64,000 bases of DNA. Source: Raja brachyura. Its lineage: Eukaryota. Where the stretch lies: contig OY740790.1 in NCBI GenBank assembly GCA_963514005.1, positions 15,810,001 through 15,874,000 on the forward strand. Reading direction: 5' to 3'. Positions 3,717 to 59,644 of this stretch are shown here, piece by piece (the stretch's first letter is position 1; each line of letters begins with the position of its first letter). A program made the position numbers and the translations under genes. A model generated the notes under the pieces. It was not told the DNA's origin, made no database searches, and worked only from the letters and a program-made list of their open reading frames with translations.

Positions 3717-5208
3717 ATGTTCGGTTATGTTCTATGGCAATCTGTTATTAACCTCTGTGTTTACCACATCTTCACATTTTGTAGCATCTGAAATTTTTGA
3801 GATTTTAGCCTTCACATCCAAATCATTAGTATATATGTAAAAGAAACAATGGCTTTATCACTCAGAAATACCAGTGTCTATCATTCTCCAATCTGAAAAA
3901 CAACTATTTCACCATGACATGGCAAAATAAAGTGTTAGAGTAACTCAGCAGGTCAGGCAATGGATAGGCAATCTTTTGCCTTGGGACCCTTCCTCAAATT
4001 GATGTCTGAACTATTTACCATGACCATGACTTTAACCATTTCTTATCCGTGCTGCCATTGATAGTTTTATTCCATACCAACCAGTTAGGCTAACTCGTCT
4101 TTTATGGGACTTGATGAAATGCTTTGTGAAAATCCACATAAATAATGTCAATTGCAATTCTGTTGGCTTCATTACCTAATCAAAATAAATCAATAATGAT
4201 GATGAAACAGGAATTGCTTTTAAGAAATCTGCATTGGCTCTCTTTTTGATAATGTAAACTTTTTCACATGCGTTTTACTTTTTTTCCCTGATGATTGTTT
4301 GTAAAAGCTTCTCCACCTGTGAAGTTAAACTTGCCAATCTGTAATTTATAAATGAGAAAAATGTATTGGCCGTTTCCCAGTTCTCTGGCACCTTTAACAC
4401 ATCTTGAGAAGATTTGGAGATTATGGCAATCCGTTCTGCAATCTCCTCCACTTCCCTCCAATGTGTCTATCTGAATGAGATGAGTTGTTTATTTTAAGCA
4501 CTGGTGACCTTTCTAATGCCACCTTCCATTCCAATTTCCCACATCCATTATACGCATTATCTCCATACTTTATTTAAGGTTTTGACAGCATCCAGCAGGT
4601 GAAGGAAGGCCAGTGCAAAGTGTTCATTGTGTTCAACCATACATTCTGCCTCAATCTAAATTGCTTTGTTAATAGAAAGATTAAATGAGAATTTACCGTT
4701 TGAAGTTTGATCTCTATTTTATGCGAAGTTGGAGTGAGAGACTACGTGAAGAACCCGCGCGCCCACATGCATGTCAATCTTCAAAGCAACTGTACGAAAC
4801 CACAGACCTCGTGCACCAAATTAAACTATGGAAAGATTAATAACTCTTGACTTACCGAATTATCTTTATGAGATTCAGGGTTGGGAGTGGAGAGCACATA
4901 GTCGCTCACTCCAACTTCTCATAAAATAAAGATCAAACTTCAAATGGTAGGTTCTCGTTTAATCTTTCTATTTTATTTCAAAGTCTTGTGACGAGGCTAC
5001 TTGAAGCCGTCGAAGCTCTGTGGTTTCATGCAGTAAACCAATCTGTATGTGAACACACTACACAGATAAACCATAAATGGTTGAAAGAAAAAACATAGGC
5101 CATTCAAACATGATGCTGACTTTACATACATGTATATCGCCCTTAACAGAACCAAAGCCCCATTACATCGGAGTTAGTCAAGTGTCTCAATTAACACAGC
5201 CCAGAATT

Positions 5209-5409
5209 CTATCTACAATTGTCCAGCCTGTTAATCGGTTTATTATAAAACTTCCGAAACGTGCGTTCATCTGACCATCCTGCTGTTGCAAGAATGTGAT
5301 CAAGAAGAACCTCCATTCTATTTGCTGCCGACGTGGCTGCAGCCCTGGTAGAGGGAGACTTGAAAATATCAGAATTCACTCCTGCTTCCAAAGCGTACAC
5401 TTTATCCAT
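5209..5409 (-). pseudogene. DIRS tyrosine recombinase C-terminal fragment
   Basis: The HSTR box reads PSTR (His to Pro), followed by AGWS and the FY-KP catalytic Tyr motif; the upstream part is frameshifted. Confidence 0.8.
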
Positions 5410-5975
5410 TTGAAATAGTCTGCACCGACACTCTCTTGTGTGGCTTTTTATAACTTATGAAGAGAGTTTTTTCCTCATCTCGGTGTTTTACTAATCTCAA
5501 TGTACTTTTTCACATAAATAACGCTGCTTCCATGGTGAGCGCTGTGAACCTGCGCATAAAAAAGGCCTCTGGCTTGGTTTTAATTGTGCAGCCTGATGCT
5601 CCAACCAACCTTTGTGCAGCGGTATATGCCGCTTACTTGCCTTGCACAAATCCTTTGCAACACAATTGAGCTCAAACTGTGCATTACACAGTAGTGCTAA
5701 GGCGTCTACTGCAAATCAGACAGCTGCATTCCCTTTACCGACCTTGCAAAGGCCGTAATCCCTCTTGTGAGAAATCTCTGAACTCGCTGGAGTTTTAAGT
5801 CTTTTTACTTTGTTTTGCCATTCAAATTGCCCCAAATGGTGGCATTAACCTTCGGAATCTCTAGTGTCTGGCAGTTATCAGGACTAGCATACTTTCCAGC
5901 AGTGTCCTGCATGTTCTTCTCATTCAGTTGATGAGAAGTCAAGTAACCAATGCTACTTGCCAGTTCTTCCTCTAA

Positions 5976-6462
5976 CGGTTCACGAGGTTGATCCCTGGGA
6001 TGGCGGGACTGTCATATGAGGAAAGATTGAAAAGACTAGGCTTGTATTCACTGGAGTTTAGAAGGATGAGGAGGGATCTTATAGAAACATATAAAGTTAT
6101 AAAAGGACTGGACAAGCTAGATGCAGGAAAAATGTTCCCAATGTTGGGTGAGTCCAGAACCAGGGGCCACAGCCTTAGAATAAAGGGAAGGTCATTTAAG
6201 ACTGAGGTGAAAAAAAACTTTTTCACCCAGAGAGTTGTGAATTTATGGAATTCCCTGCCACAGAGGGCAGTGGAGGCCAAGTCACTGGATGGACTTAAGA
6301 GAGAGTTAGATAGAGCTCTAGGGGCAAGTGGAGTCAAGGGATATGGGGAGAAGGCAGGCAAGGGTTATTGATAGCGGACGATCAGCCATGATCACAATGA
6401 ATGGTGGTACTGGTGCGAAGGGCCGAATGGCCTCCTCCTGCACCTATTTTCTATGTTTCTAT
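5976..6462 (+). mobile_element. 5'-truncated CR1 LINE nested in the DIRS element
   Basis: ORF 5988..6371 (GLSYEERLKRLGLYSLEFRRMRRDLIE...NFFTQRVVNLWNSLP) and a tttctatgtttctatg tail. Confidence 0.92.
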
Positions 6463-7229
6463 GGATCTCCTATTCCCGAGGGGATGGCAAATTCAGTCAC
6501 AAATGCCGGCAGCTCCATTTTAGACTTGAGTTGAAGCATATCATCCACGTGTGGAGGGAATTTGAGATCACGGTCAGCTTCTCCACAGTCCGAGTCTACC
6601 ATGTAATATTCCTCAAAACACCCCTCCTCGAAGCGGTAGATATCATAATGCAACCCTGAACCAGGTGTTGCTGCCGCAGATTCTGACTGGACCTACCTGT
6701 ATAGGTCACCAGTGTGCGGAGCACATTCCCTTCGACCAACCTCTCAATCAGGTTTTCCAGTTTTGCGAGCCGACAGATGATATCCTCCATGGATGTTGAG
6801 GTAGTACCTTCCTGCCCAGTATTGTTCTTTTGGACATATTTTGCCGCTTTGGCCTTGGCCTTCCCCGAACTGCTCCCTTTCGGAGCTTTTGCTTTTTATT
6901 TATTTATTTGTTTGTTTGTTTGTTTGTTTGTTTTTTACATCACGAACCTGTCAGTCAGGTAATAATGCTACGTGCCAGTACGGCCTTTACTGCTTTGCCT
7001 ATCCCCGAGAGGATGGCAAATTATGATCCAGAGTGCTGGCAGCTCTATTTTAGCCATGAGCGAAAGTATTTTGCATGTGATGAGGGAATCCTCAATCTCC
7101 CTGCCTCTGAGCAGGAGATATCCTCAAATATCTGAATTTAACTGCCTGTATCAGTGCTGTGCACTCACTCAGTTATCCTCACTTGTGAGCAGCCTGATAA
7201 CCTCAATCTTTGATGTTGAGGCAGTGCTT

Positions 7230-7890: not shown

Positions 7891-8254
7891 AAAAAAACAT
7901 CTTACCCGACGGAGCATTTCCGAATGCATCTGTATCTCACGCCATGCGACGGCGTATTGACGTGCATGTGGGCTGGTGGGTTCTTCACGTAGTCACGTCA
8001 CGAGACTGCGAAATAAAATTTATAATGGGCTTCGCCACTCCTTTTACCACCAGTTTATTTGCATTTCTTTGGAAGATTTGTGGTGGGGGTGCCGGAGTGA
8101 TTGTGGAGGCAGATACAATAGTGGCATTTATAAGGCTTTTAGATAGTAACACAGAGGTGCAAAAAATATAGGGATATGGATCATGTAAAGGCAGATGAGA
8201 TCAGTTTAACTTTGCACCATGTTTGGCACTATTCCTGTGCTCTACTGTTCTTTG

Positions 8255-8425
8255 GTTACACAAAAAGCTGGAGAAACTCAGCGGGTGCCGCAGCAGCTAA
8301 GGAGCGAAGGAGATGGGCGACGTCGCCTATTTCCTTCGCTCCTTGGATGCTGCTGCACCCGCTGAGTTTCTCCAGCTTTTTGTGTAGCCCTCGATTCTCC
8401 AGCATCTACAGTTCCTTCTTTAACA
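8255..8425. mobile_element. Fold-back (palindromic) Penelope pLTR mini-insertion with a 15-bp TSD
   Basis: The arms ggttacacaaaaagctggagaaactcagcgggtgc... and ...gcacccgctgagtttctccagctttttgtgtagcc are centred on GACGTC (8319-8324). Flanked by ctctactgttctttg at 8240-8254 and 8426-8440. Confidence 0.85.
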
Positions 8426-10628
8426 CTCTACTGTTCTTTGTTCCTTGCTCACCCATTCTCTTTGCTTATTTTCTATTTATTTCCCCAACTCAATTTATTA
8501 TATTCTGCCTAATTCTCTTAAATTATTCACCGTGATGGATAGTGCTCTTGACCCAATGTTACTAATGTGAATGAACGTTGCTACTGAGATTTTTATTTGG
8601 TTGTAGGTGTCGAGGTTTAATGGAGTCTAATCAACCTTGCAACAATGAAAACTAACTTTTGAAAGTTTTGAGACTCGTACTGCTCAGAATTTAATTGCTA
8701 TGGCAGCATTATTTTTTAATACTTATTAGTGCTGTCTTTTTTTAATCCCTCTATTGTTTACATCAATCTTTTCTTTTTGTCACTCGAATTTTTTTGGTCC
8801 TGGATTTAACATTGAATTTGCTTCTTACCATTCACGTGCTTGTTCAGATCTTTTCACTTCAGACTGTTGTTCATGTGAAACACATGAAATACTTAATCAG
8901 TATTTTGCTGTGAACCACTGGGGAAATTGATTTCTGCTCTTCAAATTCTATTCCCAATTAGGACTGTAATTATAAAAGCTGCATTCCAAATCATTTGTTT
9001 TTTTAATATAATTGTATGCCTTACTTTACAATACCTTTCTTCTTGCCTCTTTTTGGAAGCCTGTGAATCAAGGAGACTCAGTTTCCTCATGCTGTTAACA
9101 TGGATCCTTGTGAAGTGATTGCTGCTTTTCTCTCTGAGTTCATAGTCTCAGAATGAAATAGGCAGCAACGTCTCTAACAGATGGTAGGTACTGTTGGCTT
9201 ATTGATTAATGGAGGTTTCTCTACCATTCCGTTTTTCTCCCTCCTCCATGCAAGCAACATGGATATAAATTTAACCAATGGTACTGATCAAGCATGGCTC
9301 CATTTGAGCATGCAAAATAAATTTGTGCATAAATTAAACACATTTCTTGTGGGTCCAGAACCATTATCTGTTTTTTTCTTCTTTACCCAATTATTGTGGT
9401 TCATTGTCAGTACATGTTCAGAAATCGTTCACTTCAGGAAATGCTTTGACTGAATGTCCAGATGTTACTAATATGCTCCATTGCATGTACATTGAACATG
9501 TATTGACATATGAAGATCCCTTCACAGAACCTGAAGAAGAAATGGAATGATCGCAAAAGAGAACCTTGGGAACAAATGTTGATACAATCTTTAATCAAAT
9601 GAATGTGTTGAACAAATCCAAGGAAAACATTATACTCCCATATTTGTGGTTTACTTTTTGTGACAAAGAATGTCGCTTTGGTTAGTTTGGCAGAGTATTA
9701 AGCTAAGATATAGAACATATTTCATCAAAGTGCCCTGAAACACAAACATACTATTTATCATGTTAAGAAGCTTAATACTCTTTCAATTAAAACCATATTC
9801 TTTCTCCTGGCAAAGTAAACGGAGATAGAAAAATAAATATGATCAAAACTTGGAATTCATTAATATGAGAACATCAGAAAATGTTCAGGTATTTAGTGTG
9901 CAACAGCAAGTGACAAAGAAAGCCTGTGTTGCTGGAACTGTGAATCAGTTTATATAATTGATATAAAGGCAATGTACCTTTGCAACAAAAATGAGCCCTG
10001 AGGTTTAGGCTGGAATTGGTTACATTGTTGTCAAAACGAATTTCAAACCTGTGGCTGAGATGGTTTAGGAGTGAATGGGTTGTTAAATCTGTTGAAAGTG
10101 ACAAAATGTTAGTGAAATTAAACACTAACCCATCAAGCTCCACATTTATCTTGAGTTCATTTGCCCAACTATCTCAAGAGGCGGGTTGCGAAATTCGGTA
10201 GATGTTGTCGAGTTTAACATGCGGTGTGCAGGTTCCCGGAGCTTCCTGAAATTCTGCGATGAGTTGGTATATGGGGGGGGGGGAGGCTGAAGAGTTGACA
10301 GGCCGATCCAGCAAGATAACCTAAAAGCACTCAGCTGCTTTCTTCAACGTTTCTCTGAAAGACTCCTCATAAGTTGTCTTATTATTTGTTATGATTTGGT
10401 CCAACTTTGTGTATGATGGCATTCACTTTCTGTGGTTTGGAAGCATCCACTTGCTAACTGGGATTTCCAGCTCCCCAGGGCTAATCACCTTGGGTGCTTT
10501 TCATGGTGCCAAATGACAGATCCTAGGCTAGCATTCTGGTGCACAGCTACAAAAGATTCAACAGTAGGAGCAGCCTACTCCTCGTAATCCTGGAGTTCCA
10601 CAGTTCATTGGTTCTGTGCATAATGATG

Positions 10629-11032
10629 ACACGGTAGCACAGTGGTAGAGTTGCTGCTTTACAGTGCCAGAGTCCTAAGTTTGATCCTGACCACGGTGCT
10701 ATCTATACGGAGTCTGCAGAAGGGTCGCAACCCCGAAACGTCACCCATTCCTTCTATCCAGAGATGTTGCCTGCCCCGCTGAGTTACTCCAGCATTTTGT
10801 GTCTATCTTCAGAGTTTGTACGTTTTTCCCCTTGACTACATGGGTTTTCTCCGGGTGTTCTGGTTTCCACCCACACTCCATAGACGTACAGGTTTGTAGG
10901 TTAATTGGCTTTGGTAAAAAAAATAATTGTCCCTAGTGTGTGGATAGTGCTAGTGTATGGGGATCACTACTCATTGTGGATTCGGTGGGCCGAAGGGCTT
11001 GTTTCCATGCTGTATCACTAAACTAAACTAAA
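10629..11032 (+). mobile_element. tRNA-derived V-SINE (HE1-like) interrupted by a hammerhead-bearing mini-element (about 10711-10811)
   Basis: tRNA-like head (tagcacagtggtagagt...gtttgatcctg), V-domain (tgggttttctccgggtg.tctggtttcc.cccacactcca.agacgtacagg), CR1-like 3' end gggccgaaggg..tgtttcc and (ctaaa)n tail. Confidence 0.85.
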
Positions 11033-12149
11033 GTCCAGCTCAGAAACAAAACCGCCGCAGTTGTGAAGGCAGAGTGTGAGTTTACTTCCTTGAACAGCAA
11101 CATCAGAGAGGGCTCATTGTTTCATATCACATAGCGGCAAAGACTTGGCCAATACTCATTGCCTGCTGCATCCTGGTGATCATGCTCCAGTTGCGACCGC
11201 CAGTGACTGCCACTTCTTTGCCATGGGATACTGCCAGGCGTTGCAGATTCCTACAGCTATCACACAATAAGGCATCAGGCAGGTGCATGATACCTAGTTT
11301 ACTTTTCCCACCAAATTGCAGCTGTAGGAAACAAGACGATCTCCCTAAGCATGTGTGAAATACTCCAAGACAATGATTGAGCATGCTGTGGCTTGCTGAG
11401 GGAATGCTTTGGATGTTAGAAAAATGTGGAGGTGATCTTAGGGGTGAGTCAGTTGGTGTTGTGCAAACAGCTCAATATCTATTCTACCCACTACTTCAAT
11501 ATGTTCAGAATAATTGTCCTCATGCAAGGTCTTAGCCACTCCTCTGTTGTTTGTTTCTCAGTGTGTATTTTTGCTCCAAAATACACAATGAACCAACCAG
11601 TGAATAATTAGAAAAAATGCGGGAGACATTAAATACCATCATGAGAACCTTCGTATTAGTCAAGCAGGTAGGGCTGAAGTTTGGACCTGCCGGTGTTCAT
11701 CTTAGAAGACCTGCCGGTGTTCATCCTACATGAAATATCTACAGAGATTCCAAAAATCCAGTTTCCAGATATGTCCTAGAGGATCAGAAGTCTGTCATCT
11801 GAATCATACATGATTGGAAGTCAGAAGTTTGTAACTCCAGGATGCTTACCTAATGATTTATTGGAAAAATGTTAGGATCAAGTATTGAAATGATAATAGC
11901 AAGACATTTTAAAAGTCATGATCCAATTATGCAGAATCAGCATGTCTTCAGAAAGGAAAATCTGTTTGACAAATGTATCATAGTTATTTGCTGAAGCACC
12001 AACTGGAGTGTAATGTTCTGGAATTTTAAAATGTAATCACAAGGTGCCACATTAATTTTGTAAAATGAGAGCTCATGGCGTTGGAGGTCGTATATTAGCA
12101 GTATTGGCTAACGAGCAGCAAGTAACAAGAAGATTTAACCAACCAATCC

Positions 12150-36735: not shown

Positions 36736-39700
36736 ATTTGTATTGTTTTATTGTATTGTTTTGTCAAATTGAATAGTATTGTTCTTTGCAGCATTTGTCT
36801 TTTTACTCTCGGTCACGAAGTGGGAGTTAACAATGGAAAATTGCTCTTCTATATCTTAAAAAATATATATTCCTAAGTTCTGAGCTCCTGGTTGAAATGT
36901 TGACTTTCTGCATTGCATTAGGGATCTCTTCATTGAGTGAATATTTTATACTTAAATTCTGTTGCCTGCTGAAAATTTTCTGATTTTGAGATTTCCTCCT
37001 AGTTTAGTTGAGTTTTAATACATCAGACAAAATCAATTTAATTTGTCTTTCAATTTAGTTGTATGTGATACTACAGCTTTGTTTAATTTAAATTATTTTA
37101 CTTGAGAACTATGTTCTGCAGCTCCATCTAGACTAAAAAGATCCTTTCACTGACGGAATTGAACTTGAATGGCCTAATAGTTTCCAAAAGATGTTATCTC
37201 TGCAGTATAGAAGAATAGGTGGTTTTGTTATCTTTTTTATCTATTTGCCTTTATGTTATCTTTAACTCCCCTTCCCCTTTAACCTTGAAGTTTGAAAGCA
37301 ATTACTCTTTGAGGCTGGTTAAATAACAAGTCATAGGCAATTAGGTACATTACGAGAGTGGGCAGATAAAAAGGGCCTCCTGTAAGGGCGGAGGAAGATG
37401 GCCTTAATGATAAGATATGGTGGAATATTTACGCTGAGAAGCATGTGGTTATCGCAGCTCTGCTCTACTGTGCTGCATTTGCCAGGGTGCTGAAGATGAA
37501 AGGACTGCGACTACACTTGTTCTGTAGCTAATGCACTTGGTGCCTCTCTGCTGTGAAAGGTGAAATCTCGGCTGCCTGTGATTTTTTTTTTGGTGAAATT
37601 TGCTGTACAGTAAAGTTCCCTATTAATATAATTTTAAGTTTACATTTCAAAATAGTGGCACTCAAGAATGCTCATGACCACCAAATGTTTAAGTAGATTC
37701 ATGAGATGTAGTTAATAAATATATCAAAGTGAAAATTCTGCCTGCTTGGAGAGCAGGGCATTAAAACCACGAGACTGCCATTTAAAAATGGCAATGGTCT
37801 AGAAATCTGGTTATATACTTTGTTTTGAACATTGAATTCCCCAAGTTTAGGTCCTCATTTTCTGTTTGGGTAGGGTACAACCTGATGACATGAACACTGA
37901 ATTCTCCAATTTTGGGTAAAATATATCAGCCCCACCCCCTTTTTTAAAATTTACCACCTCTCTTCCCAATGTTCAACCACTTTCTCCTTACTCCCGACCC
38001 ATTCCTCTTATATCCCTTTCTCTGGCTTCACTTTTCACTCCTCCTCTCTCCATTGTTTCTCTCTCCATTTTACACTGTTTTGTCTTGTTATACTATTCTT
38101 ATACCAATGTAAAGCACTTTGGCCAATGAGAGTTGTTTTTTTAAATGTGCTATATAAATGACTTGACGACTTGTTTTCATCTCTAGCCTTTGTCCATCTA
38201 TATGCCAGTGAAACACCCTTGACCGGTATCCTTGCCAGGCTTTGTCCTGCCTTCATCTCCTTTCCAACTTTCTCCGCCCCCACTGCCTCACCTCCCAACT
38301 GCCGGCTAAAGAAGGGTCCCGACTCGCAACGTCACCTCTCCAGGTTCTCCAGAGATGCTGCCTAACCTGTTGGGATACTCTAGCACTTTGTGGGGTTTTT
38401 TGTATACTAGCGTCTGCAGTTCCTTCAATCTCCATATAATTTGTTTTATTTGGTGGAATAGAACCCTATTTCAATTGCAAATTTTGACTATGGCAAGAGT
38501 TGCATGTTATATGACATTAACAAATTTGAATTTTGTACCTGTATACAGACATGCTTGAAATAGTTAAGTATTTGTAGCGGTGATATCAATCCCTGTGTAA
38601 AGCTTCCCTTTCCATTTGTGCTATTTATGAGATAGATCTGTAGATTATCATGTGCCTGATTTTTGCCATGATTAGGTGACATATATTAGTCCTTTCCTGA
38701 ACTCTGCCCATATCATTGGTAAATATTGGTAAAATTCCCTTGATTTCTTGATATAATAATCACATGTTAAAAAATAACATGAAATGTCTTTTCCTTTTAT
38801 CCTTTGGCATTTAATTTTATTTGCAACATAGCAAAACTTCATTCAGAATTATGAGAGAATCAAGACCCAACAAAACCCTGCAAATGGACACTCTGACTGT
38901 TCCATTTATTTCCACTCTATATTTTCAGTTACTTTAGAATTATTGCAGTTAAAAGCCATGTCCAGTTTAGACAGCAACAACGATAATGGCCAACTGGTCA
39001 ATTGCCAGGAACAAAAATTATAGAGGAAAGGATATAGGGTGGAACTCTAAAAAAAAGAATGAAATTAGTTAAGTAAGCTTAAAACCAAAGGTGAGTGACA
39101 TCCTACTTTATTTATTGTTAAAAGTAAACACAAAATAGATCAATGGACAGTGATTTGGAAAATGATGGAACATGTTAGAAATCTACAGATCAATCAGAGT
39201 AATATGTACTAAAGCACGTGCCAGCTCACTTAGAGGACCAAATCAGCATGGACTCATTCTCTGCGGTTGCAAAGAAAGGACTCATTATGGTGAAACAATT
39301 TTCAGCATCAAACAGTACCTCACCTGCTGTGTGTGATTATCTCTGTTTAATAGCCGGCAACGGTCTGGACAATTGGATACAGTAAAACCTAACCTTACTG
39401 CCAACTGTCCATTACAGCATCATGGAAATATTAAATGTGGTCCACAGATGTGGGACAGCTTATAAATATACTGCAAGCCATGGATTCCAGCAAGGTCAAA
39501 CCTGCACTGATTGAAAATCAGTCCAATCGCTGCGAATAAAATTGGTTAAGGAAAGTCAGGACACTCCAAATGTGCATTTATAATAGTATGAAACCAGAGG
39601 ATTAATAAACTTCTACCACATATACAGTTGTAGCAGATTGATTCATATAATGTACTGGGTGCATCATTTGCCCCAAGTCCTTCAGAAAAGATGTTTTTTA

Positions 39701-41827: not shown

Positions 41828-42790
41828 TAGGATACGATACAAATTAATTCATCCCTGGAGGGAAATTGGTCTGCCAACAGTCACAACACAACAAGGTACA
41901 CGAAAACTTGAAATGAAAGTTAAATTGAAAGTGAGAAAAAAAAAGAAAAAGACAAGCGTCTGTTGGCTGGCTGCCGTGTGTGCACAGCACCTGAACCAAA
42001 CAAACAGACAACAAACGAACACAGACTTATCCCTTGGGCAGAGGATTCAAAACTAGAATGCCTCCCCCACACCGGCTCCCCCTTTGTTCTCTCATGGTAC
42101 TTCACAGCGGTTCCCTCGCGACGGGTCCCCATTGTTCTTCACGGTGGCCCCGCAAGGCTCCCGTTATCGCCGAGGCCCCACCAACGCCGATGCTTCTGTT
42201 GCCGCCGAGGCCCCACCAACGCCAAGGCCCCACTGCTGCCGCCGAGGCCCCACTGCTGCCGCCGAGGCCCCACCATCGCCGAGGCCCCTGTTGCCACCAA
42301 GGCCCCACCACCGCCGAGGCTCCCTTTGCTGCCGAGGCTCCCACTGCTGCCACCGAGGCCCCACCAACGCCAAGGCCCCTGTTGGCGCCAAGGCCCCACC
42401 ACCGCCGAGTCTCCCTTTGCCGCCGAGGCCCCACCAACGCCAAGGCCCCTGTTGCCGCCGAGGCCCCACCAACGCTGAGGCCCCTGTTGCCGCCGAGGCC
42501 CCACCACCGCCGAGTCTCCCTTTGCCGCCGAGGCCCCACCAACGCCAAGGCCCCTGTTGCCACTGAGGCCCCACCACCGTCGAGTCTCCCTTTGCTGCCG
42601 AGGTACCCATCTCTGTCGCCGCTTAAACTCCTTCGGCCCAGACAGGCGTCGCCACCCGGCATCTCCGCTGTCCTCTGGGCGTCGTGTGGGGCGAGTCGGG
42701 TCGGGCCTACCGGGGCGCTTTACAGTTGTCAGCGCGGTTGTTCGGCGGTTGGATCAGGCCCAAGCAGCTCTCCCCGGAGCTTGGGGTAGA
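41828..42790 (-). mobile_element. GC-rich non-autonomous retroposon (copy E) containing a minisatellite
   Basis: The minus 3' end ...aatttccctccagggatgaattaatttgtatcgtatc is the same stem-loop tail type as copy A. Confidence 0.55.
42165..42605. repeat. GC-rich minisatellite built from 15/18-bp modules
   Basis: Repeats of gccgaggccccaccaac / gccaaggcccctgttgcc / gccgagtctccctttgcc. Confidence 0.9.
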
Positions 42791-44979
42791 TGTTAAATAT
42801 TGCAATAATTCACAGACCTATTTCAATATTTCAGACATAGCAATAATTTCAAGACCTGATCAAACATTGAGACAGGTGGACTAGGAGCAAAATAATGCTT
42901 TTTTTCTCTCTCTAGGCTGGAAATTGGTCTATTCCACCATTAGTAATTTTAGAAAATGTTATGGCTCATGCCCCAATCTTCCTAGGATTTAACAACTTGA
43001 TTAAGTTGCATTCTCTTACAATTTTGACAGTAGCTCATTAACTATGGAGAAGGTTAGGTATTCTCTCATTTCTACTCGGAACAGTTTGACCTTCACCTTA
43101 ATCTTAAAATTAATTTATATCCTCTTGTTGTGACCTGAAACTGTTAACGAGCAATGGGAAAATTATTTCCTTACTGGAAGTCTTCAGCCTTCTCTTCCTG
43201 TGGGAAACATTCCGCCTGTTTTCTCTTCTGACATATATTTTCACGTTGAGTCTTTGTGGATGAATGGATCTTCAATGATTTGGGAGGTTCATTATAGTTT
43301 CTCATTGCTAACATCCTCTGGCTTTAATACACCTTATATAATTGAATGCAATAAACGGCCGAGGGAACTGTAACTGCTCTCCACCAGGCACAGGCATTCC
43401 TTTTACTTAAGGACCATCTGTTTTCTAAGCTACAGGCTAAAAATGATAGTCTTGTAAATATGGCTGATAATATTTTGATCCAGAGCGTTGGCGCAATGAC
43501 TGAAATATCCCCAGGGCTGTTGGATTATTTAAATTACTAAATCAGAACTAAAGGGTTATAATTGTAACATTGAAAACAAAAAATTGTCACGATAAAAGGA
43601 CAGGATTGCCCCTTTAGGCAAGGGAACCTGCCACTTTTACTTGGTCTGCCCTCAAAATGATTTCACAACCACCCTCTGGAATGGCCAGAAAACCACTTGA
43701 TTTTATCTAACAATAAAAGCAAGAGGAATGCTCGCTAAACCATGCAGCATTAACCTAGGCACCAGATGTCCGATGTTTCCCTGTCGGCCTTCACAAGGAC
43801 CCCCTTGCAATATTTAAAGACTTGCCAATATTGGGGACATCTCACAGATTAGAGAAGGAATAATTGACTCCCAGAAATAATTCAGCCAAGCATATTCACT
43901 CTATTTCCTATTGACACAGCAGGAGGCTGTTTCAGCCCGTCAAGTCCATGCCAATTCGCAAAACCAATCCCATTTACCCCCAATAACACCACTCCCTGGC
44001 CTGCACTGTACATTAGCCGCTTCCAGCTGCTTCCAGGCCGCTTCCAGGCCGTGCCTGCGTCGACACCGTCACTACTGATCCTTACCAGCTCTCCAGCCTC
44101 TCACGGGCTGTGACCAATGACTCCGTCAATCCTCACCACTCCCATGGCTGCCAGCAAGCCGTGGGCCGTCAACTCAACTGGATTCCAGGCCCCTGTTCCA
44201 GACCGTGATCTGGCGAAAGGTCTCGACCCAAAACATATAGTATCCATTTTCTCCAGAGACGCTGTCTGATGTGCTGAGTTACTCTATTATTTTGTGTCTT
44301 TTTGTATATTAACCAGCATCTGCAGTTCTTTTTTTCTACTACTTGTGCAATGATACTCTATTACTTGGTAATCACCCAATTGGTTATCGCGGACAATCGG
44401 CAATAACGGACACAATTCATCTGCCTTTGGTCTGTTATTATGAGAGTTTACTCCGTGTTCATGAGATGAATGTTGTAACTCAGTATTAGAATTGTGCCTG
44501 CTGTACAGTCACATGTAAAGGAGGGGCAGGGACCTTTTTGAAGTCGGCACAAGTGTTGAGCCTGGTTAAAATGAGTTGCACATGCAACAGCAGCAATGTT
44601 CATTTTACTATCCCTCTTCCTCTTGCTATCTTCACCAGTGTTGTGTGAATGGAAACAAATGCAAATTAAACTAAATGACTGTCTCTCTTCTCACTGTTAC
44701 TTTGTCAGCCTTTTGGGGCAATGACCCAACCCACCCAGTTTGATAATGTTAAAAGCAGATTGGCTGCTGATTTATGAAAACAAAAGTGACTGCAGATCCT
44801 GAGATTTGGCTACTAATTTTGTGCTCCAGAAGGGGTTTTGTTGGATGTGTTTTGCAACCACTGGGTAACCAAGACTGATGGGTATGATGTGGAGAATGCA
44901 CCCGTAGACAAACAACACCCTCAACTCCCAACAACAAGGACTTCAGGGTACAATCTTCTATCTCATTGTACATGCAATG

Positions 44980-45277
44980 TTTAGTTTAGAGATACAGGGT
45001 GGAAACAGGCCCTTTGGCCCAATGATTCCATGCCGATCAGCGATCCACACACACTTACTCTATCCCACACACACTAGGGACAATGTACAATTTTGCCAAT
45101 CCAATTAGCCTACAAACCTGTACAACTTAGGGGGAAACTGGAGCTCCCGATGAAAACCCATGCAGGCCATGGGGAAAACATACAAACTGTATACATACAG
45201 CACCTGTAGTCAGCATCAAATGCAGGTCTCTGGTGCTGTAAGGCAGTAATTCTACCACTGCACCACAGTGCCACCCT
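44980..45277 (-). mobile_element. V-SINE (HE1-like)
   Basis: Reverse complement of the 10629-11032 SINE, from the tRNA head (gtggcactgtggtgcagtggtagaattactgccttacagc) to the ctaaactaaa tail. Confidence 0.85.
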
Positions 45278-46869: not shown

Positions 46870-49800
46870 ATCCAGGATGTCATGGACAGAATGCAGAAAA
46901 TCCTCAAGAGCGAAGGTGAACAGCCGGAAGTGGTAGTGCATGTCGGCACAAACAATGTCGAAAAGAAGGGGATCAATATTCTGCAACATGACTTTAGAGA
47001 GCTCGGAAAAATGCTGAAAAGCAGGACCTCCAGGGTGGTTATCTCCGGTTTGCTTCCAGTTCCTCGTGCTGGCGAGAGCAGAAACAGGGAGATACGGGAC
47101 CTGGATGTATGGCTGTGAAACTGGTGCAGGGGGCAGGGATTTCGATTCTCAGATCACTGGGATCTGTTTTGGAGTACCGGGGAACTGCACAAAAGGGACG
47201 GATTGCATCTTAACAGGTGGGGGACCCCTGCCACTGCTACACGGGTGGTTTTAAACTGAATAAGTGGAGTGGGGTGTCAAATGGGATAGTCGAGGATGGA
47301 GTTAAAGGGAAAGAGAAAAAAGGGATAGTTAATGACCCCAGAATTAATGGGAAAGGAAGCTCACAAAGGGATAGTAGAGTATGGCCAAGTGTAATGGGGA
47401 TCAATGTGAAAGGTGAGATGCGTAAGGAATTAAAAGTATTGTATATGAATGCGCGAAGTATAAGAAGTAAAGTATATGAGCTTGAGGCTCAGTTAGAAGT
47501 TGGTAGATATGACATTGTGGGGATTACTGAGACGTGGCTGCAGGAGGATCGGGCCTGGGAACTTAATATTCAGGGTTATACATCAGGTGGGCAGAGGAGG
47601 GGGGGTAGCTCGCTGGTGAGGGATGGACATCGGGACTGACGAGGTAGAGTCGCTGTGGATTGAGTTGAGGAATTGTAAAGGCAAGCAGACACTAATTGGT
47701 GTTATCTACAGACACCCAAATAGTAGCCCGGATGTAGGGTGTAAGTAGCAGCAGGAGTTAAAACTGGCATGTAACAAAGGTAATGCCACTATGGTGATGG
47801 GGGATTTCAATATGCAGGTAGACTGGGAAAATCAGGTTGGTTCAGGACCCCAAGAAAGAGAGTTTGTAGAATGCCTCCGAGATGGATTCTTAGAGCAGCT
47901 TGTAATGGAGCCGACCAGAGAAAAGGCAATTCTGGATTTAGTGTTGTCCAATGAACCAGATATGATAAGAGAACTCGGGGTAAAGGAACCGCTTGGAGGT
48001 AGTGATCATAATATGATTAGTTTTAATCTGCAATTTGAGAAGGAGAAGGTTAAATCGGAAGTGTCAGTGATGCAGTTGAATAAAGGGAACTATGAAGGCA
48101 TGAGAGGGGAGCTGGCCAAGGTAGACTGGAAAGGGATCCTAACAGGAATGACGGTGGAACAGCAATGGCAGGAATTTCTGGGCATAATCCGGAAGACGCA
48201 GGATCATTTCATTCTAAAAAGGAAGAAAGATTCTAAGGGCAATAGGAGGCAACCATGGCTGACAAGAGAAGTTAGGGATAGAATAAAACTAAAAGAAAAG
48301 ATGTATAACACAGCAAAGAGTAGCCGGAAGCCAGAGGATTGGGAAACTTTCATAGGACCACAGAAGGAAACAAAACGAGCAATACAGGCTGAAAAGATGA
48401 AGTACGAAGGGAAGCTGGCCAGGAATATAAAAAAGGTCAGTAAAAGCTTCTTTAGATATGTTAAGGGAAAAAGAGTAGCAAAGTCAAATGTGGGTCCCTT
48501 GAAGGCAGACACGGGTGAAATTATTATGGGCAACAAAGAAATGGCAGAAGAGTTGAATAGGTACTTTGGTTCTGTCTTCAAAGGAAGACACAAACAATCT
48601 CCCAGATGTACTGGAGGACAGAGGAAGGGGGTAGAGGAACTAAACTACATTTTCATTAGGCGAGAAATAGTATTGGGTAGGCTAATGGGACTGAAGGATG
48701 ATCACTGCCCTGGGCCTGATGGTCTGCATCCCAGGGTCCTCGGGGGATGGCTCTAGAAATAGTGGATGCATTGGTGATCATTTTCCAATGTTCAATAGAT
48801 TCAGGATCAGTTCCTGTGGATTGGAGGATAGCTAATGTTATCCCACTTTTCAAGAAAGGAGCGAGAGAGAAAACGGGGAATTACAGACCAGTTAGCCTGA
48901 CTTCGGTGGTGGGAAAGATGCTGGAGTCAATTATTAAGGAGGTAATAATGGGGTATTTGGATAGCAGTAAAAGGATTAGTCCAAGTCAGCATGGAATTAT
49001 GAAAGGGAAATCATGCTTGACTAATCTTCTGGAATTTGTTTGAGGATGTGACAAGTAAAATGGATGAATGGGTGCCAGTGGATGCAGTGTATCTAGACTT
49101 TCAGAAAGCCTTTGATAAGGTCCCACACGGGAGATTGGTTACTAAAATTAGAGCACATGGTATTGGGAGTAGGGTGTTGACATGGATAGAAAATTGGTTG
49201 GCAGACCGGAAGCAAAGAGTAGGAGGGAACAGGTCCTTTTCAGAATGGCAGGCAGTGGCGAGTGGAGTGCCGCAAGGCTCGGTGTTGGGGCCGCAACTGT
49301 TTACCATATATATTCATGATTTGGAAGAGGGAATTAGGAGCAACACTAGCAAGTTTGCGGATGATACAAAGCTGGGTGGTAGTGTGAACTGTGAAGATTA
49401 TGTTAGGAGGTTGCAGGGTGACCTGGACAGGTTGAGTGGGTGGGCAGATGCGTGGCAGATGCAGTATAATATAGACAAATGTGAGGTTATCCACTTTGGC
49501 GGCAAAAACAAGGGGGCAGATTATTATCTCGATGGGGTTAGGTTAGGTAAGGGGGAGGTGCAGCGAGACCTGGGCGTCCTTGTACACCGGTCACTGAAAG
49601 TTGGCGTGCAGGTACGGCAGGCAGTGAAGAAAGCTAATGGAATGTTGGCCTTCATAACGAGAGGATTGCAGTATAGGAGTAAAGAGGTTCTTCTGCAGTT
49701 GTATAGGGCTCTGGTGAGACCACATCTGGAGTATTGTGTACAGTTTTTGTCTCCTAATTTTAGGAAGGACATCCTTATGATTGAGGCAGTGCCGTGTAGG

Positions 49801-50119
49801 TTCCCAATGTTGGGCGAGTCCAGAACCAGGGGCCACAATCTTAGAATAAAGGGGAGGTCATTTAAGACTGAGGTGAGAAATAACTTTTTCACCCAGAGAG
49901 TTGTGAATTTATGGAATTCCCTGCCACAGAGGGCAGTGGAGGCTAAGTCACTGGATGGATTTAAGAGAGAGTTAGATCGAGCTCTGGGGGCTAGTGGAGT
50001 CAAGGGATATGGGGAGAAGGCAGGCACGGGATAATGAGAGGGGACGGTCAGCCATGATCACAATGAATGGCTCAAAGGGCCGAATGGCCGCCTCCTGCAC
50101 CTATTTTCTATGTTTCTAT
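46870..50119 (+). mobile_element. Near-full-length degenerate CR1 LINE (ORF1 esterase end + ORF2 EN-RT)
   Basis: ORF1 SGNH-like VVVHVGTNN motif. ORF2 start LKVLYMNARSI..DIVGITETWL, MGDFN, SDHN, YRPVSLTS, DFQKAFDKVPH, PQGSVLGP, FADDTK; frameshifted; tttctatgtttcta tail. Confidence 0.95.
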
Positions 50120-53069: not shown

Positions 53070-53600
53070 GATCAGACATTGGTGGCCAAATTTGGAACAT
53101 TGTGTGCAATTTTGGGCCTCACATCTGAGGAAAGATGTGCTGGCTTTGGTTAGGGTCTCAAAGCGATTTATGAGAATGATCCTGGGATGATTTGATTAAC
53201 GTATGAGGTGCATTTGAAGCCTCTCGGCTTGTACTCACTGGAGTTGAATAGAATGAGGGGGTCATCTCATTTAAACTTTCCAGTTAATGGCCTAGACAGA
53301 GTGGATGTGGAAAGGATATTTCCAGTAATAGGAGCGTCTAGAACAAGAGGGCACAAGCTCAGAAGAAAAGGACATGCCTTTATGAAGGAGATGAGGAGGA
53401 ATTTCTTTAGCTAGAGGGTTTTGAACCTGTGGAATTCGTTGCCACAGACAGTTGTTAAGGCCAAGTCATTGCGTATTTTTAAAGCAGATTCATGATTAGT
53501 AAGCGTGTCAAAGGTTACGCGGAGAAGGCAGGAGAATGGGGTTGAGAGGGAAAAATAGATCAGTCATGATTGAATGGCGGAGTAGACTCTGAGCTGAATG
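53070..53600 (+). mobile_element. Degenerate CR1 3' fragment
   Basis: LGLYSLELNRMRG...SRTRGHKLRRKG...EMRRNFFS. Confidence 0.82.
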
Positions 53601-54138
53601 GCTGAAGTGGTGAATCCCATTGGAGGTGGCAAAAATATTGGAGGATTATGTGCTGTATGTGACGGCTGATGGGGAAAACAGTGAGGACTAAGGGGACTGT
53701 CCCTGTTGCGACTTGGGGAGGGGGAGCAAGAGCAAAGCTGCTGGATATCGTGGAGACATGAGTGAGGGATTCATCTATGATGGAAGAGGGATGTAAACAA
53801 TAAGGTGAGATGTCCTGGTAGATCCACTAAATCAATACCTTTATGCTGCAGTGAGACACTCAACCCTGTTAATGCAAGTTGCATTCAAAATGAGAAAGGT
53901 GAGAACCACCTGACCACTGAAAAATGTGGATTCTCAAAATTCTTTAAGCATATTACTTCGCTAAACATTAATGCATTTACGGAAAATATTTAAATTCTCA
54001 CAATCAATAGTATTTATTTCCTTTAGTTATTTTGGGTTTGTCAGATTAACAATATACTTCACCATTTCAAACGTTTTTCTTGTTCTGATTTTGTGACGAT
54101 AATTCTACTGACTTGATCTTATATTCTCTCTCCTAAAG

Positions 54139-54774: not shown

Positions 54775-55067
54775 GTTTTTGAGATAAAAGGTGGAGACAG
54801 GCCCTATGGCTCACCAAGCCCGTGTCAACCATCGAACACCCGTACACTAGTTGTATGTTGGGACACTTTCACATCCTGCACACTAGCGGCAATTAAGCTA
54901 CAAACCTGCACGTCTCTGCAATGTGGGAAGAAACCGGAACACCTGGAGAAAGTCCACACGATCTCAAGGATAATGTACAAACTCCCTACAGACAACACCC
55001 AAAGTCTGGATCGAAACCGGGGCTCTGGCACAGTCGGCAGTAACTCTACTGCTGTGCCACCGTGCTG
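54775..55067 (-). mobile_element. V-SINE (HE1-like)
   Basis: Head gcagcacggtggcacagcagtagagttactgcc...ccggtttcgatcc on the minus strand; V-domain present. Confidence 0.8.
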
Positions 55068-55893
55068 CGCTTTCTCCCAGACTGGCTTCTCATTACCTGA
55101 CTTGTTTGCCATTAATCTTTCATGTTTCTCAGCCATTGTTAATGAGGCTCTGAATCATGTTCTGAAATTTCAGAATGTCACATTACAGCGTGGGAACCTC
55201 TATTAATTGGCTTCGTCTTTTCCTGCAGTTGAATAGGATGCCAAAGAATGCTTCCAAATTTAAATTTATGCTTAAGATTTAAAACCAGACACAATTGCCA
55301 GTTGAAGATCAGAGATATGGGGGCGAATCAACTATAAATATAGATTTAAATGTAGAGATGGCTGGAGGAGTAGAGTGCATCAACTTTTTGTTTTGGCTTG
55401 GCAAATTAAAAACATTTAAAAAAAAAAACTCCTACGTTCTGGATATCGGAAATAAAAACATGATATTAACTACTTATCTTTCCATGGATGCTACCTGAGC
55501 TGCTGAATGTTTCAGGACTCTACTATTTTAACATTACGTCAGTTAGCACATGTAGAAAGTTAATATTTCTGTTCAAAGACCCTTCACCAGTACTGGGAGG
55601 GAGGAAAATGTTTGGATTAAGTTGCAGGAAGGATGGAGGGAGACAGATAGGTCAAGAGGAATATCTCTGGTGGAGTGAGGCCAGGCTCGCCGTAACAATA
55701 AACTTAGCCAAGGTTATTTGGTCAATGGGTTAATGAGGGCAGTTTAGGGAGAGAGAACGTGTATAAACATATCCATAAAATGTACGAACTGAGTGCAGTT
55801 AGTGAGTTGGTTTGTCTAGATGTATCTTTGGTCCTCATTGTACAGTCTCAACATCCATTGCTTTCATTTGAAGAAAAGGGGTAAACTATCAGC

Positions 55894-56484: not shown

Positions 56485-56658
56485 NNNNNNNNNNNNNNNN
56501 NNNNNNNNNNNNNNNNNNNNNNNNNNNNNNNNNNNNNNNNNNNNNNNNNNNNNNNNNNNNNNNNNNNNNNNNNNNNNNNNNNNNNNNNNNNNNNNNNNNN
56601 NNNNNNNNNNNNNNNNNNNNNNNNNNNNNNNNNNNNNNNNNNNNNNNNNNNNNNNNNN
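56485..56658. other. Assembly gap (174 N)
   Basis: Run of n characters. Confidence 1.
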
Positions 56659-57677: not shown

Positions 57678-58169
57678 GAAACTGTTGACTCTCTCAACCA
57701 CGAGATACTTCTACCTTAATCCATGTTAATCAATGTGCCAAATATTGATTTGCTTGCTGTAAAATATTTAAAAGGTCACTTCAGCGGTCTCATCTTCCTG
57801 ATTTCCCCTTTGACCCCATACTTCAATGTAAATGGCTGTCCTTTTACGGTCCGAAGAAAGGTCTGAAATATCATCTGTCCATTTCCCTCCATAGATTCTG
57901 CCTGACCCGTTGAGTTTCTCCTTGCACTAAACGTTATTCCCTTTATCTCGTATCTGTGGCTGTTTCGATTGTAATCATTTAATGCTGGTCTTTAATGCTG
58001 ATGACATAGTGGTTTTCTGGATTGCAGAGATCCCATGTGATTAATGGCAGAATGAAAATAACATGAAATAGAAATCCTGCCATGTTGCCACTGCATTTGT
58101 GATCAGAGCTCAATGGCAAGCACCACAACTTTGATGTTGACATGAAAGAATGCGCTATTAGACTTTCCT

Positions 58170-58387
58170 TTAGACTTTGGAGATACAGCACAGAAACAGG
58201 TCCTTCGGCCTACGTTGACCAGCGATTACCCTGTACACTAACACTATCCTATATACTCGGGACAATTTTACAACTTACCAAAGCCAATTAACCTACAAAA
58301 CTCTATTTCTTTGGCGTGTCGGAAGAAATTGGAGCACCCTGACAAAATGCACAGGGAGTATGACCGCTCCGTACAAAGCACCCGTAG
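58170..58387 (-). mobile_element. Truncated V-SINE
   Basis: gagatacagcacagaaacagg.ccttcggcc...aagccaattaacctacaaa matches the SINE 3' half. Confidence 0.75.
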
Positions 58388-59539
58388 CCAATTGATCAAT
58401 AACCAGATACTGATTTTATCAAAATGCACGAGTTATGTTCAATTTGTGTGTATTTGCATGCATTCTAAACTTTTTGCACTAAACATTAGGTTGAAACAAA
58501 ATCATAATGAGGATGTGGTGGATTCAGATGTTTGGCTATAAAAGGAAATGTATGTTAGATTCTGGTGCAACGTGACTGGTGGAAATTGTCCTGAAGCTGT
58601 GCATCAGATCTGCATAATATTAAATGAAAGTGAAAGTTTAAAGCCAACTTATTAACAGTGCTTTGCTCCACACAATGCAAGCAGCCATAAGAAGTTTGAT
58701 GGCTAGCTTGCCGTTGACTTTGTGGTGACCTAACTTCAGGGTTATGCAGAACATTTTTAGTATTTTAGGTTTCAGAGATAAATGAGCCCAATGTGTGTCT
58801 GTGCAAGCTTCTGGATAAATGCCATTGGGCTGCCTGGTGGTCCATTCCCATGCTGGACTAATCTCCTGCTTATAAATTGGAAAGGCCTGAAATTAAATTT
58901 ACTAAATTACCTTGGTGAAACCTCATGGAGGCCACATGTGGATTTTATTCTCTGGTGGTTTCATCTCAATCTACAGACATTCCCAGGCACTGCTGGGGAT
59001 TCCATGAGGAGGTTGACAAAGGTCATAATAATTAACATAAAAGCTGTAATTAAAATGTTGCAGTTGATTCAGTTAAAATGAAATTATCTTTAGCAAAGGA
59101 ATCTTTGCAAATATTCATAGGACACTAAAACTGTTGTTCTCCAGTCACAGGCATTCAAACATGTTTTCTTTATTACGAATTCTATATTTTAAATATTGGG
59201 ATTCATTCCCATTTGTCCATTCATTGATTCTATTTTTTTAATTGATTTTCAAGTTAGTATGTTGAAAGTTAGTGTCGCAATGGAAAGAAAATCATGTATC
59301 TTAATGTGTACCAAACCTATTCCATGAATGGTTTTGAGGACAAGAGGAACTCAATTTAATGCTTCAAACTCATTCTCCCATTCACTACGTTCATGGCTGA
59401 TCTGTGACCTTTCTCCTTGACATTCACCTGCATTCCTTAATATAATAGGTTGGCAAAAAATTATTAATCTTTGATTTAAAGTTATCAATTGACAGAGCAC
59501 CAATTACTGTTTGCTAGAAGAAGTATCCTAAATTTATCT

Positions 59540-59644
59540 GTATTATCAATCTGAAGAAGGGTCTCGACCCGAAACGTCACCTATTCCTTCGCTCCATAGA
59601 TGCTGCCTCACTCGCTGAGTTTCTCCAGCATTTTTATCTACCTT
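59540..59644 (+). mobile_element. 105-bp hammerhead-bearing pLTR mini-element with a 12-bp TSD
   Basis: Flanked by ctaaatttatct at 59528-59539 and 59645-59656. Confidence 0.85.
59551..59578 (+). ncRNA. Minimal type-I hammerhead ribozyme core (intact, sense to HMCN1)
   Basis: CTGAAGA-A-GGGT-CTCG-ACCC-GAAA-CGTC, with predicted cleavage after C59578. Confidence 0.72.

Follow-up and report, generated by a model that had tools for sequence, protein, structure and literature searches.

The 64-kb window (the whole stretch of DNA that was analyzed) carries six exons of a hemicentin-1-like gene and, at a density of one copy per 4 kb with decayed copies counted, a family of short dispersed repeats (Table 1). 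The earlier note had listed 11 sites as hammerhead-type pLTR repeats of a Penelope-like element (PLE). All of them proved to be family members: with the copy at 59551 as the only query, nhmmer matched the remaining 10 listed sites at E ≤ 5.4e-5. Their coordinates held in essence, with small offsets that place core position C3 at 3997(-), 24445(-), 36603(-), and 44210(+). A profile built from nine copies gave 16 matches at E < 1e-9, nine of which are the profile's own members and match by construction; the best E value in the reversed-window control was 0.077. Five of these matches (1+, 8322+, 8321-, 16670-, and the 28652- arm) were absent from the earlier list, and a weak match at 55478 (E = 0.007) and seven weaker profile rows were excluded from all counts. 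The 28-mer occurs three times within 3 mismatches (59551+, 36576-36603-, and 24418-24445-), and 100 shuffles produced no occurrences. No tandem array of the pLTR unit was present among the 25 tandem-repeat rows of the window. Rfam covariance models returned no hammerhead row for the window, either at the gathering threshold or at E ≤ 10; the 20 weak rows from this search all represent other families, and the best ones fall on the inverted pairs.

Table 1. Host gene and pLTR-derived insertions in the 64-kb window
Positions	Strand	Feature	Details
1..75	+	3' part of pLTR with tail, cut by window edge	5' end unreadable; profile E 2e-12
3919..4008	-	Short pLTR copy, decayed, with 4 core positions broken	5' end 11 nt ahead of C3; flanked by imperfect target duplication of ~16 nt (4009-4024 and 3902-3918)
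8255..8425	.	Head-to-head fold-back insertion	Arms 8255-8321(-), short, and 8322-8425(+), tailed, meet in the middle of helix III palindrome ACGT; flanking 15-nt target duplication exact (8240-8254 and 8426-8440)
10711..10810	+	Short tailless pLTR copy within another dispersed repeat	5' end at C3, AGT microhomology; core change A6>C
12131..13486	+	5'-truncated PLE	Broken RT (12173-12790), Cys-rich linker and GIY-YIG (12880-13260), pyrimidine-rich spacer, pLTR, tail; hammerhead at 13367, deletion takes out GUC region
16545..16740	-	Old pLTR copy; family sequence upstream of it is pyrimidine-rich	Broken core; absent from earlier list
24321..25224	-	5'-truncated PLE	GIY-YIG remnant (25146-24662), spacer, pLTR, tail; hammerhead at 24445 with G12>A, G16.2>A; 23-nt inverted pLTR stub at 5' end (25202-25224); 17-nt target duplication (24304-24320 and 25225-25241)
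28537..28750	.	Head-to-head pair	Arm with tail, 28537-28652(-), starts inside stem II; other arm, 28652-28750(+), at C3
30427..54274	+	Host gene, hemicentin-1-like	Six exons, which begin near 30427, 34043, 45462, 45922, 52824, 54137
36330..36461	+	Short tailed pLTR copy, core broken	Starts at C3, between exact 9-nt target duplications (36321-36329 and 36462-36470)
36472..36725	-	pLTR copy with ~120 nt of upstream family sequence	Antisense to host gene; tail-to-tail with 36330 copy; sole copy with full core, 4-bp helix II (A-U at 10.1-11.1), and 2-bp helix I
38240..38430	+	Old pLTR copy, pyrimidine-rich sequence upstream	G5>A, A13>C
44209..44335	+	Short tailed copy, core broken	Similarity begins at C3; A10.1 opposite C11.1, uncompensated
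57849..57921	+	Short decayed copy	A10.1 and T11.1 flank internal stem II deletion
59540..59644	+	Short tailless copy	Intact core 59551-59578; 5' end 11 nt before C3; G2.2>A leaves 1-bp helix I; exact 12-nt target duplication (59528-59539 and 59645-59656)

The proposed origin of these repeats in the pLTRs of a PLE is supported by two copies that form the 3' ends of broken reverse transcriptase (RT) and GIY-YIG frames (tblastn E values of 3e-61 and 2e-45). These frames, at 12173-13260(+) and 25146-24662(-), align to protein P0003, in which the Pfam families RVT_1 and GIY-YIG both scored; no PLE-type Pfam family scored in the window's own broken frames. The order characteristic of EN+ PLEs, RT followed by GIY-YIG in one ORF, is found via this alignment, and the window itself shows their 5' truncation, an inverted 5' arm, and the 30-40 bp tail that is optional in them. 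Related proteins, P0003 among them, come from skates, rays, and sharks, the closest being those of Leucoraja erinacea (82%) and Amblyraja radiata (79%). The linker reads CRKCYTC at ~12895 in the window and CNRRKCYTC in P0003 and is thus of the CX2-5CxxC type that, between RT and EN, marks the Neptune and Nematis PLEs (PMC8557442). The clade assignment is based on this motif, which makes the element a likely member of the Neptune type. Members of the Neptune clade (PMC8557442) have the same RT with a C-terminal GIY-YIG and the same Cys-rich linker (found also in Nematis); they share the truncation at the 5' end, the inverted 5' arm, and a tail of 30-40 bp that is optional, a likeness seen here without a full-length ORF. 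No full-length ORF or copy was found within the 64-kb window.

Exact target duplications of 9, 12, 15, and 17 nt flank some of the insertions, and inverted 5' arms occur at 8255-8425, 28537-28750, and 25202-25224. No target duplication was found for the copies at 44210 and 57851, whose 5' ends are defined by loss of similarity alone. The copy at 10711 interrupts a dispersed repeat, which we take to be SINE-like, with uninterrupted versions at 45070-45273 and 54890-55064. In run X1, the loose 3' ends lie, among the matches listed (24 of 1,767 rows), at 36473 (2,202 contigs) and at 36508-36510 (1,018, 1,496, and 879 contigs). These two 3' ends, 35-37 nt apart, correspond to the known tail; the same is seen in runs X5 and X10, and the flanks are A/T-rich. 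Among the same matches, the main loose ends near C3 are at 36608 (906 contigs, X1), where the consensus is G-rich and resembles the upstream sequence of another subfamily. The pile-up of contigs from related sequencing runs bears out the earlier suggestion of a very large family, with the reservation that summed contig depth does not equal copy number (core/flank, 1.9-2.9e5 in X1; ~6e3 if each base was counted 31 times). Inverted 5' arms and an optional 30-40 bp tail have been described for PLEs in general (PMC8557442). The study of PAc, a Poseidon element of Anolis carolinensis (Frangieh et al. 2024, PMC11167929), describes a 30-40 bp tail with two RT start sites, tail-spaced 3' ends, and A/T-rich targets like those seen here.

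All 15 copies with a readable 5' end span both sides of the GUC site, so that their template was likely uncut RNA; insertions of PAc likewise span the hammerhead cleavage site (PMC11167929). None of the 15 5' ends falls at the cleavage site, and 7 of them lie 0 to 11 nt before C3, which gives p < 1e-4 against a crude exponential-truncation null, for a window chosen post hoc. Random truncation does not account for this clustering. PAc, however, belongs to a different clade, and the available part of its description reports no 5'-end clustering at the hammerhead. By analogy with the anole element, the RT/GIY-YIG protein would nick A/T-rich DNA, and reverse transcription would begin at either of two pLTR RNA sites 35-37 nt apart. 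Most events, judging from the structures, would end early, with closure through microhomology or a head-to-head inverted arm, and would leave stubs of 100 to 135 nt with 9- to 17-nt target duplications. The inserted copies would then decay, chiefly at the three CpGs of the motif, where most of the observed decay is indeed found; this decay is likely neutral. It is possible, and here only tentatively suggested, that the solo pLTR stubs are non-random, with reverse transcription from the internal start of the 5' pLTR running off the natural 5' end of the uncut transcript 0 to 11 nt before the core. Hundreds of thousands of skate insertions might then record the RNA start, and the fold-back arms might anneal at the ribozyme palindromes.

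The same 5' ends, and the target duplications that short copies carry on their own, would also suit an independent non-autonomous element (SINE-like or a retrozyme) that has its own hammerhead-headed transcript and is mobilized by the PLE protein. Non-LTR retrozymes, as described in bioRxiv 10.64898/2026.07.22.740005, are similarly pLTR-derived, hammerhead-bearing, and non-coding, and tandem ones are reported there from one chondrichthyan genome. However, tandem repetition is part of the definition of a retrozyme, each unit of the array having its hammerhead, whereas the copies in the window are single or in inverted pairs, with no tandem array of the unit and no starts at the cleavage site. 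Furthermore, subfamily letters are common to short and ORF-bearing copies (59551 with 13367; 8322 and 1+ with 24445), and an independent element appears improbable. As an origin of the short copies, a spliced RNA was considered as well (AG right ahead of the core, as in Drosophila virilis), but inspection by eye revealed no evident splice donor.

Conservation of the hammerhead itself was assessed in an alignment of 13 copies (A2). The boxes had been described as kept in the best copies, which is true of both boxes in four copies (59551, 36603, 28652+, and 13367), but the whole 13-position core is kept in just two, 59551 and 36603. The same two are the only matches in the window to a minimal-hammerhead descriptor (null mean of 0.025 per shuffled window, maximum of 1 in 200). 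The CUGANGA and GAAAN-NUH boxes, the extra base 9/10.1, and the palindromic 15.2-16.2 are found together in 2 of the 13 copies. In 6 of the 13, G12 is replaced by A, with loss of the catalytic base (for the role of G12, see PMC6155905). Helix I has 2 bp at best (36603) and 1 bp at 59551, with 68% of its alignment cells paired; in minimal PLE hammerheads it usually has 3 to 5 bp, and 2 bp in some (PMC4209133). The predicted minimum-energy fold is not the hammerhead (z ~0.5). The published consensus, CUGANGAH, G..C, GAAAN, NUH without a helix III loop (PMC4209133 Fig. S3), is matched by the best copies, and this fit, which includes features outside the core boxes, suggests that the fold was likely selected in the source elements, as the earlier note held, albeit not on the strength of the A-U double change in stem II. 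On the whole, the repeats are very probably dispersed, mostly decayed pieces of the pLTR 3' end of a likely Neptune-type, likely skate, Penelope-like retrotransposon, whose source elements carried a minimal hammerhead motif; cleavage by this motif would likely be confined to tandem transcripts of the element.

Stem II does read GGGT/ACCC at 59551 and AGGT/ACCT at 36576, but this difference does not serve as evidence of selection for compensatory change. The covariation score was 0.143 versus 0.153 in shuffled data, 286 of 500 shuffles scored as high, and none of five measures rose above the shuffles in this test, which has low power as it covers 13 decayed copies and not family consensuses. 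Across 12 copies, the pair 10.1-11.1 is G-C in seven, A-U in two, and unpaired in three; A10.1 accompanies T11.1 in those 2 of 12 with P = 0.13. Position 11.1 falls on the C of a CpG in which decay runs in both directions (CG in 4, TG in 3, and CA in 6 of 13 copies), and CpG decay likely accounts for the 3' partner in the A-U pair of the 36576 copy. In the run contigs (letter figures from 40 of 67 rows), non-C letters make up ~55% of the depth at 11.1 versus 8-12% at other CpGs, a count biased by the T of the reference, and source subfamilies with G-U or A-U at 10.1-11.1 may exist.

The A-U pair might represent a real source subfamily, with stem II covarying among source elements even though the window cannot show it. 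T11.1 is present in two of the three copies with A10.1, non-G letters at 10.1 amount to 11-15% of the depth (above the 5-6% at two positions private to the reference), and published minimal hammerheads include A-U and G-U closing pairs (PMC4209133). The zebra shark read-through protein P0013 ends in SLMKGLRPKRQ, and back-translation would preserve the boxes and give U at the free position 7 and G at 11.4. We nevertheless regard such a subfamily as rather unlikely, given the covariation measures and P value above and the A10.1 opposite C in the copy at 44210. In the unphased and reference-biased letters, G at 10.1 accounts for 85-89% whereas C at 11.1 accounts for 43-45%, so that most 3' changes are unmatched on the 5' side. 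Modelled stem II pairing falls from ~0.7 to 0.05 in the A-U version because an alternative helix becomes possible.

The earlier note spoke of sense copies in one long intron, but six host exons between 30427 and ~54270 split the set, which is spread over at least three introns. Ten copies are in sense and six in antisense orientation (p = 0.45, small sample), and this window-level count shows no depletion of sense copies within introns. The earlier suggestion that sense intronic copies pair as double hammerheads and cut nascent hemicentin RNA would be surprising if true, but the evidence here runs against it. Pairing is permitted in principle by the helix III palindrome, ten copies are in sense orientation, and dimers are considered the active form of minimal hammerheads (PMC4209133; reviewed in PMC6765202). 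The depletion of tandem retrozymes from Xenopus introns, reported in bioRxiv 10.64898/2026.07.22.740005, also counts for intronic cleavage. However, an intact core is found in only 1 of the 10 sense copies (59551), with a one-pair helix I, and intronic dimer cleavage is therefore unlikely. Among the remaining sense copies, an intact GUC box is kept in 10714 and 38306, which are 49 and 21 kb away, in other introns. Modelled hammerhead dimers have energies of +0.1 (59551) and -2.1 (36603) kcal/mol versus -21.1 and -20.7 for the best co-folds, i.e., ~19-21 above, in a model without tertiary contacts or protein. Cleavage by dimers in vitro was weak (PMC4209133), and 8 of 9 Xenopus dimers showed no cleavage in the bioRxiv report. 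Likewise, the anole ribozyme depended on the protein of its element, and RNA-seq yielded no reads with an end at the ribozyme's site (PMC11167929). Cutting of the host RNA is thus highly improbable.

The closest known counterparts are the minimal type I hammerheads in the pLTRs of metazoan PLEs (Cervera and De la Pena 2014, PMC4209133), which share the CUGANGAH box, the extra base before helix II, G10.1-C11.1, GAAAC-GUC without a helix III loop, and the position downstream of GIY-YIG. Like the copies in the window, they are mostly single dispersed copies from truncated PLEs, with ~4,000 in coelacanth and 9,000 in Xenopus; the density in the window is above those reported there, under different counting rules. 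The 4-bp helix II and 2-bp helix I lie towards the lower limit of published lengths; the Drosophila, Culex, and Oikopleura rows also have 2 bp. Fig. S3 (56 rows) and Table S1 of that paper include no chondrichthyan. Literature searches yielded little on chondrichthyans, in line with the earlier note, and no description from skates, to which a pattern known since 2014 is here extended; the chondrichthyan data of the bioRxiv report may already include the family. The size of the family is of interest chiefly for repeat annotation. What the hammerhead does in EN+ PLEs has been called unclear (PMC8557442), and a genome with so many dated copies could probe it via 5'-end counts. A pattern scan with free stem II gave no matches in viral contigs or prokaryote genomes; three metagenome matches, with no similarity to the window, were dropped as chance. 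A protein search using the pLTR reading frame gave 1 match among 11 candidates, and the Leucoraja gene model P0066 reads through a copy.

A search with nhmmer, using as a query the 59551 copy (copies are named by the first base of the hammerhead core, C3), recovered the ten other sites listed in the earlier note, all at E≤5.4e-5. A profile built from nine copies gave 16 matches at E<1e-9, or one per 4 kb of the window, against a best E value of only 0.077 in the reversed window. The 28-mer motif had three matches with ≤3 mismatches and none in 100 shuffles. The repeat family is thus real, abundant, and had been correctly recognized; five matches (1+, both arms at 8255-8425, 16670-, and the minus arm 28537-28652) are additions to the sites in that note, and the copy counts leave out a weak match at 55478 (E 0.007) together with seven still weaker rows. 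The family is very large, as had been proposed, judging from the contigs of four related sequencing runs, aligned to 36450-36810 at 80% likeness: 183,690 (X1), 189,889 (X5), 206,579 (X10), and 17,156 (X18) contigs were placed there, with a summed depth in X1 1.9-2.9e5-fold higher in the core than in the flank (∼6e3 at worst-case overlap counting), a ratio that is not a copy number. Extrapolation of the window density to the 2.13 Gb estimated for the little skate genome (PMC10115646) would give ∼5e5 copies.

Broken coding frames upstream of two copies (see the table), together with the consensus fit of the motif, support the reading of these repeats as hammerhead-type terminal repeats (pLTRs) of a Penelope-like element (PLE). 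The RT piece matched 17 proteins among 94 candidates, best one from Leucoraja erinacea (82%) and next one from Amblyraja radiata (79%), followed by other rays and sharks, which makes a skate host likely; one related public protein, P0003, scores both RVT_1 and GIY-YIG. The Cys-rich linker is of the CX2-5CxxC type, a marker of both Neptune and Nematis (PMC8557442), and the family is, judging from this motif, likely Neptune. A PLE RT-thumb fragment at 53554-53793(-) (tblastn E 4e-8) has no pLTR match nearby. Skate and shark public gene models P0066, P0013, and P0002 read through pLTR or PLE RT sequence, probably as annotation artifacts.

This kind of PLE hammerhead was described in 2014, with thousands of single motifs that stem from truncated PLEs in coelacanth and Xenopus; chondrichthyans are absent from the alignment and table of that paper (PMC4209133). 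Literature searches for Penelope, hammerhead, and shark and for hammerhead ribozymes in elasmobranchs found no relevant description among the papers listed, and Penelope is unmentioned in the main text of the skate genome paper and of a preprint on shark and ray genome sizes, in line with the suggestion that the family is poorly described in chondrichthyans; retrozymes are reported in one of them (bioRxiv 10.64898/2026.07.22.740005). The skate repeat extends an already known kind of hammerhead PLE pLTR.

Coordinates of target duplications and coding remnants in the window (RVT_1 was scored for two of the four LINE RT remnants)
Feature	Position	Strand	Remarks
Exact target duplication	8240/8426		15 nt
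Exact target duplication	24304/25225		17 nt
Exact target duplication	36321/36462		9 nt
Exact target duplication	59528/59645		12 nt
Broken coding frame upstream of one copy	12173-13260	+	RT motifs, Cys-rich linker, GIY-YIG
Broken coding frame upstream of second copy	25146-24662	-	GIY-YIG
LINE RT remnant	1501-2331	-	
LINE RT remnant	13728-14831	-	
LINE RT remnant	19705-21027	-	
LINE RT remnant	47214-50070	+	

In the best copies, CUGAAGA and a single additional A precede a helix II of 4 bp, with G10.1-C11.1 as its closing pair, and GAAAC-GUC without a loop; helix I has 2 bp. This agrees with the consensus that Cervera and De la Pena published for minimal PLE hammerheads (PMC4209133). Rfam gave no hammerhead match in the window; a minimal-hammerhead descriptor gave two, versus a null mean of 0.025. 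All 13 core positions are intact in 2 of the 13 aligned copies, and 36603(-) alone also retains helix I. Because the motif fits the published consensus, the fold was likely selected in the source elements, as is also suggested by the residues of the zebra shark read-through protein P0013, which imply U at free position 7 (inferred from amino acids); covariation lends this part of the earlier note no support. The GGGT/ACCC and AGGT/ACCT variants of stem II had been read as a compensatory change, but five covariation measures on the 13-copy alignment were all at the shuffle level (score 0.143 versus 0.153 shuffled, with 286 of 500 shuffles as high). At the closing pair, A10.1 and T11.1 each occur in 3 of 12 copies and together in two (P=0.13), and in the 44210 copy C faces A. 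The C at position 11.1 forms a CpG with G12, the catalytic base of the hammerhead (PMC6155905), and this dinucleotide reads CG in four copies, TG in three, and CA in six, as is typical of a CpG decaying in both directions.

In the aligned contigs, whose letters are unphased and reference biased, G accounts for 85-89% at 10.1 and C for 43-45% at 11.1, so that most 3' changes lack a 5' partner. This mismatch, and a pairing of A10.1 with T11.1 no stronger than in shuffles, make a minor source subfamily with an A-U closing pair rather unlikely, even though A-U and G-U closing pairs are known in published hammerhead families (PMC4209133) and, in the same unphased and reference-biased letters, bases other than G make up 11-15% at 10.1, above a floor of 5-6% at private positions, and T11.1 is far commoner than decay at other CpGs (8-12%).

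The host gene is hemicentin-1-like, on the + strand, with six exons between 30427 and ∼54270; no further exons of it were found in the window, and the stretches before and after are therefore inferred to be introns. Rather than sharing one long intron, as had been assumed, the copies are spread over at least three, without sense depletion (10 copies are sense, 6 are antisense; p=0.45). Cutting of nascent host RNA by dimerized sense copies, for which the depletion of retrozyme copies in Xenopus introns (bioRxiv 10.64898/2026.07.22.740005) could speak, is not supported: only one of the sense copies retains an intact core, and its helix I is reduced to 1 bp; its candidate partners lie 21 and 49 kb away with exons between; and the hammerhead dimer is less stable than the best co-fold by 19-21 kcal/mol when modeled with neither tertiary contacts nor protein. 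Published hammerhead dimers show weak activity (PMC4209133), eight of nine Xenopus dimers show no cleavage (bioRxiv 10.64898/2026.07.22.740005), and the anole ribozyme is protein dependent, with no reads ending at its site (PMC11167929).

Target duplications are exact at four places (see the table) and imperfect for the 3997- copy; the 10714 copy sits inside another repeat, splitting it. Three insertions carry an inverted 5' arm, the inverted-copy-plus-tail pattern of PLEs (PMC8557442, PMC3846280), the tail here being an optional 3' extension of 35-37 nt. In the fold-back at 8255-8425, flanked by a 15-nt target duplication, the arms, one tailed and one tailless, are 91% complementary and join at the center of the helix III palindrome ACGT. 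Loose 3' contig ends concentrate at 36473 and 36508-36510, with A/T-rich flanks; these ends fit the anole element, in which RT was shown to start at two sites (PMC11167929). At 36330-36725, two copies lie tail-to-tail with ∼10 nt between them; such pairs are common, because opposite-strand joints of the tail end (36472-36474) to 36505-36525 recur in ∼285 X1 contigs among those listed.

The clustered 5' ends are the one lead worth following across the genome. Among the 15 copies with readable 5' ends, five extend into pyrimidine-rich family sequence and seven (3997-, 10714+, 28652+, 36330+, 44210+, 57851+, and 59551+) end 0-11 nt before C3, similarity farther upstream being no higher than background (p<1e-4 under a crude truncation null, for an interval picked post hoc). 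Three inverted arms are broken within the motif; in two, the break falls on the center of the helix III palindrome. None of the 15 copies has its 5' end at the GUC cleavage site, and all 15 include sequence on both sides of it, which points to an uncut template for reverse transcription, as in the anole element (PMC11167929). Two causes of the clustering are likeliest: a transcript that starts there, with run-off from its 5' pLTR, or stalling plus AGT microhomology at the pyrimidine-tract edge. In the Leucoraja read-through protein P0066, another locus is joined at the same point (n=1, from amino acids). The 11-nt 5' extensions of two short copies, at 59540-59550 and 3998-4008(-), terminate in TCAAT instead of the YAGT of long copies. 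In 13367+, 24445-, and 36603-, the upstream pyrimidine-rich tract ends in YAG one base from the core, resembling a 3' splice site, with no donor evident by eye; in Drosophila virilis Penelope, an intron ends at helix I (PMC4209133).

The window also contains G+C-rich tandem arrays at 42153-42603 (35-nt units) and 62180-62336 (23-nt units), and repeats that we take to be SINE, CR1, and L2, the LINE RT remnants being presumably CR1/L2. LINE copies 1424-1723 and 19628-19927 are recent, as they are 98% alike. A 120-nt inverted repeat (55894-56013/56257-56376; 95% complementary), close to the assembly gap at 56485-56658, may represent a MITE-like element or result from the assembly.
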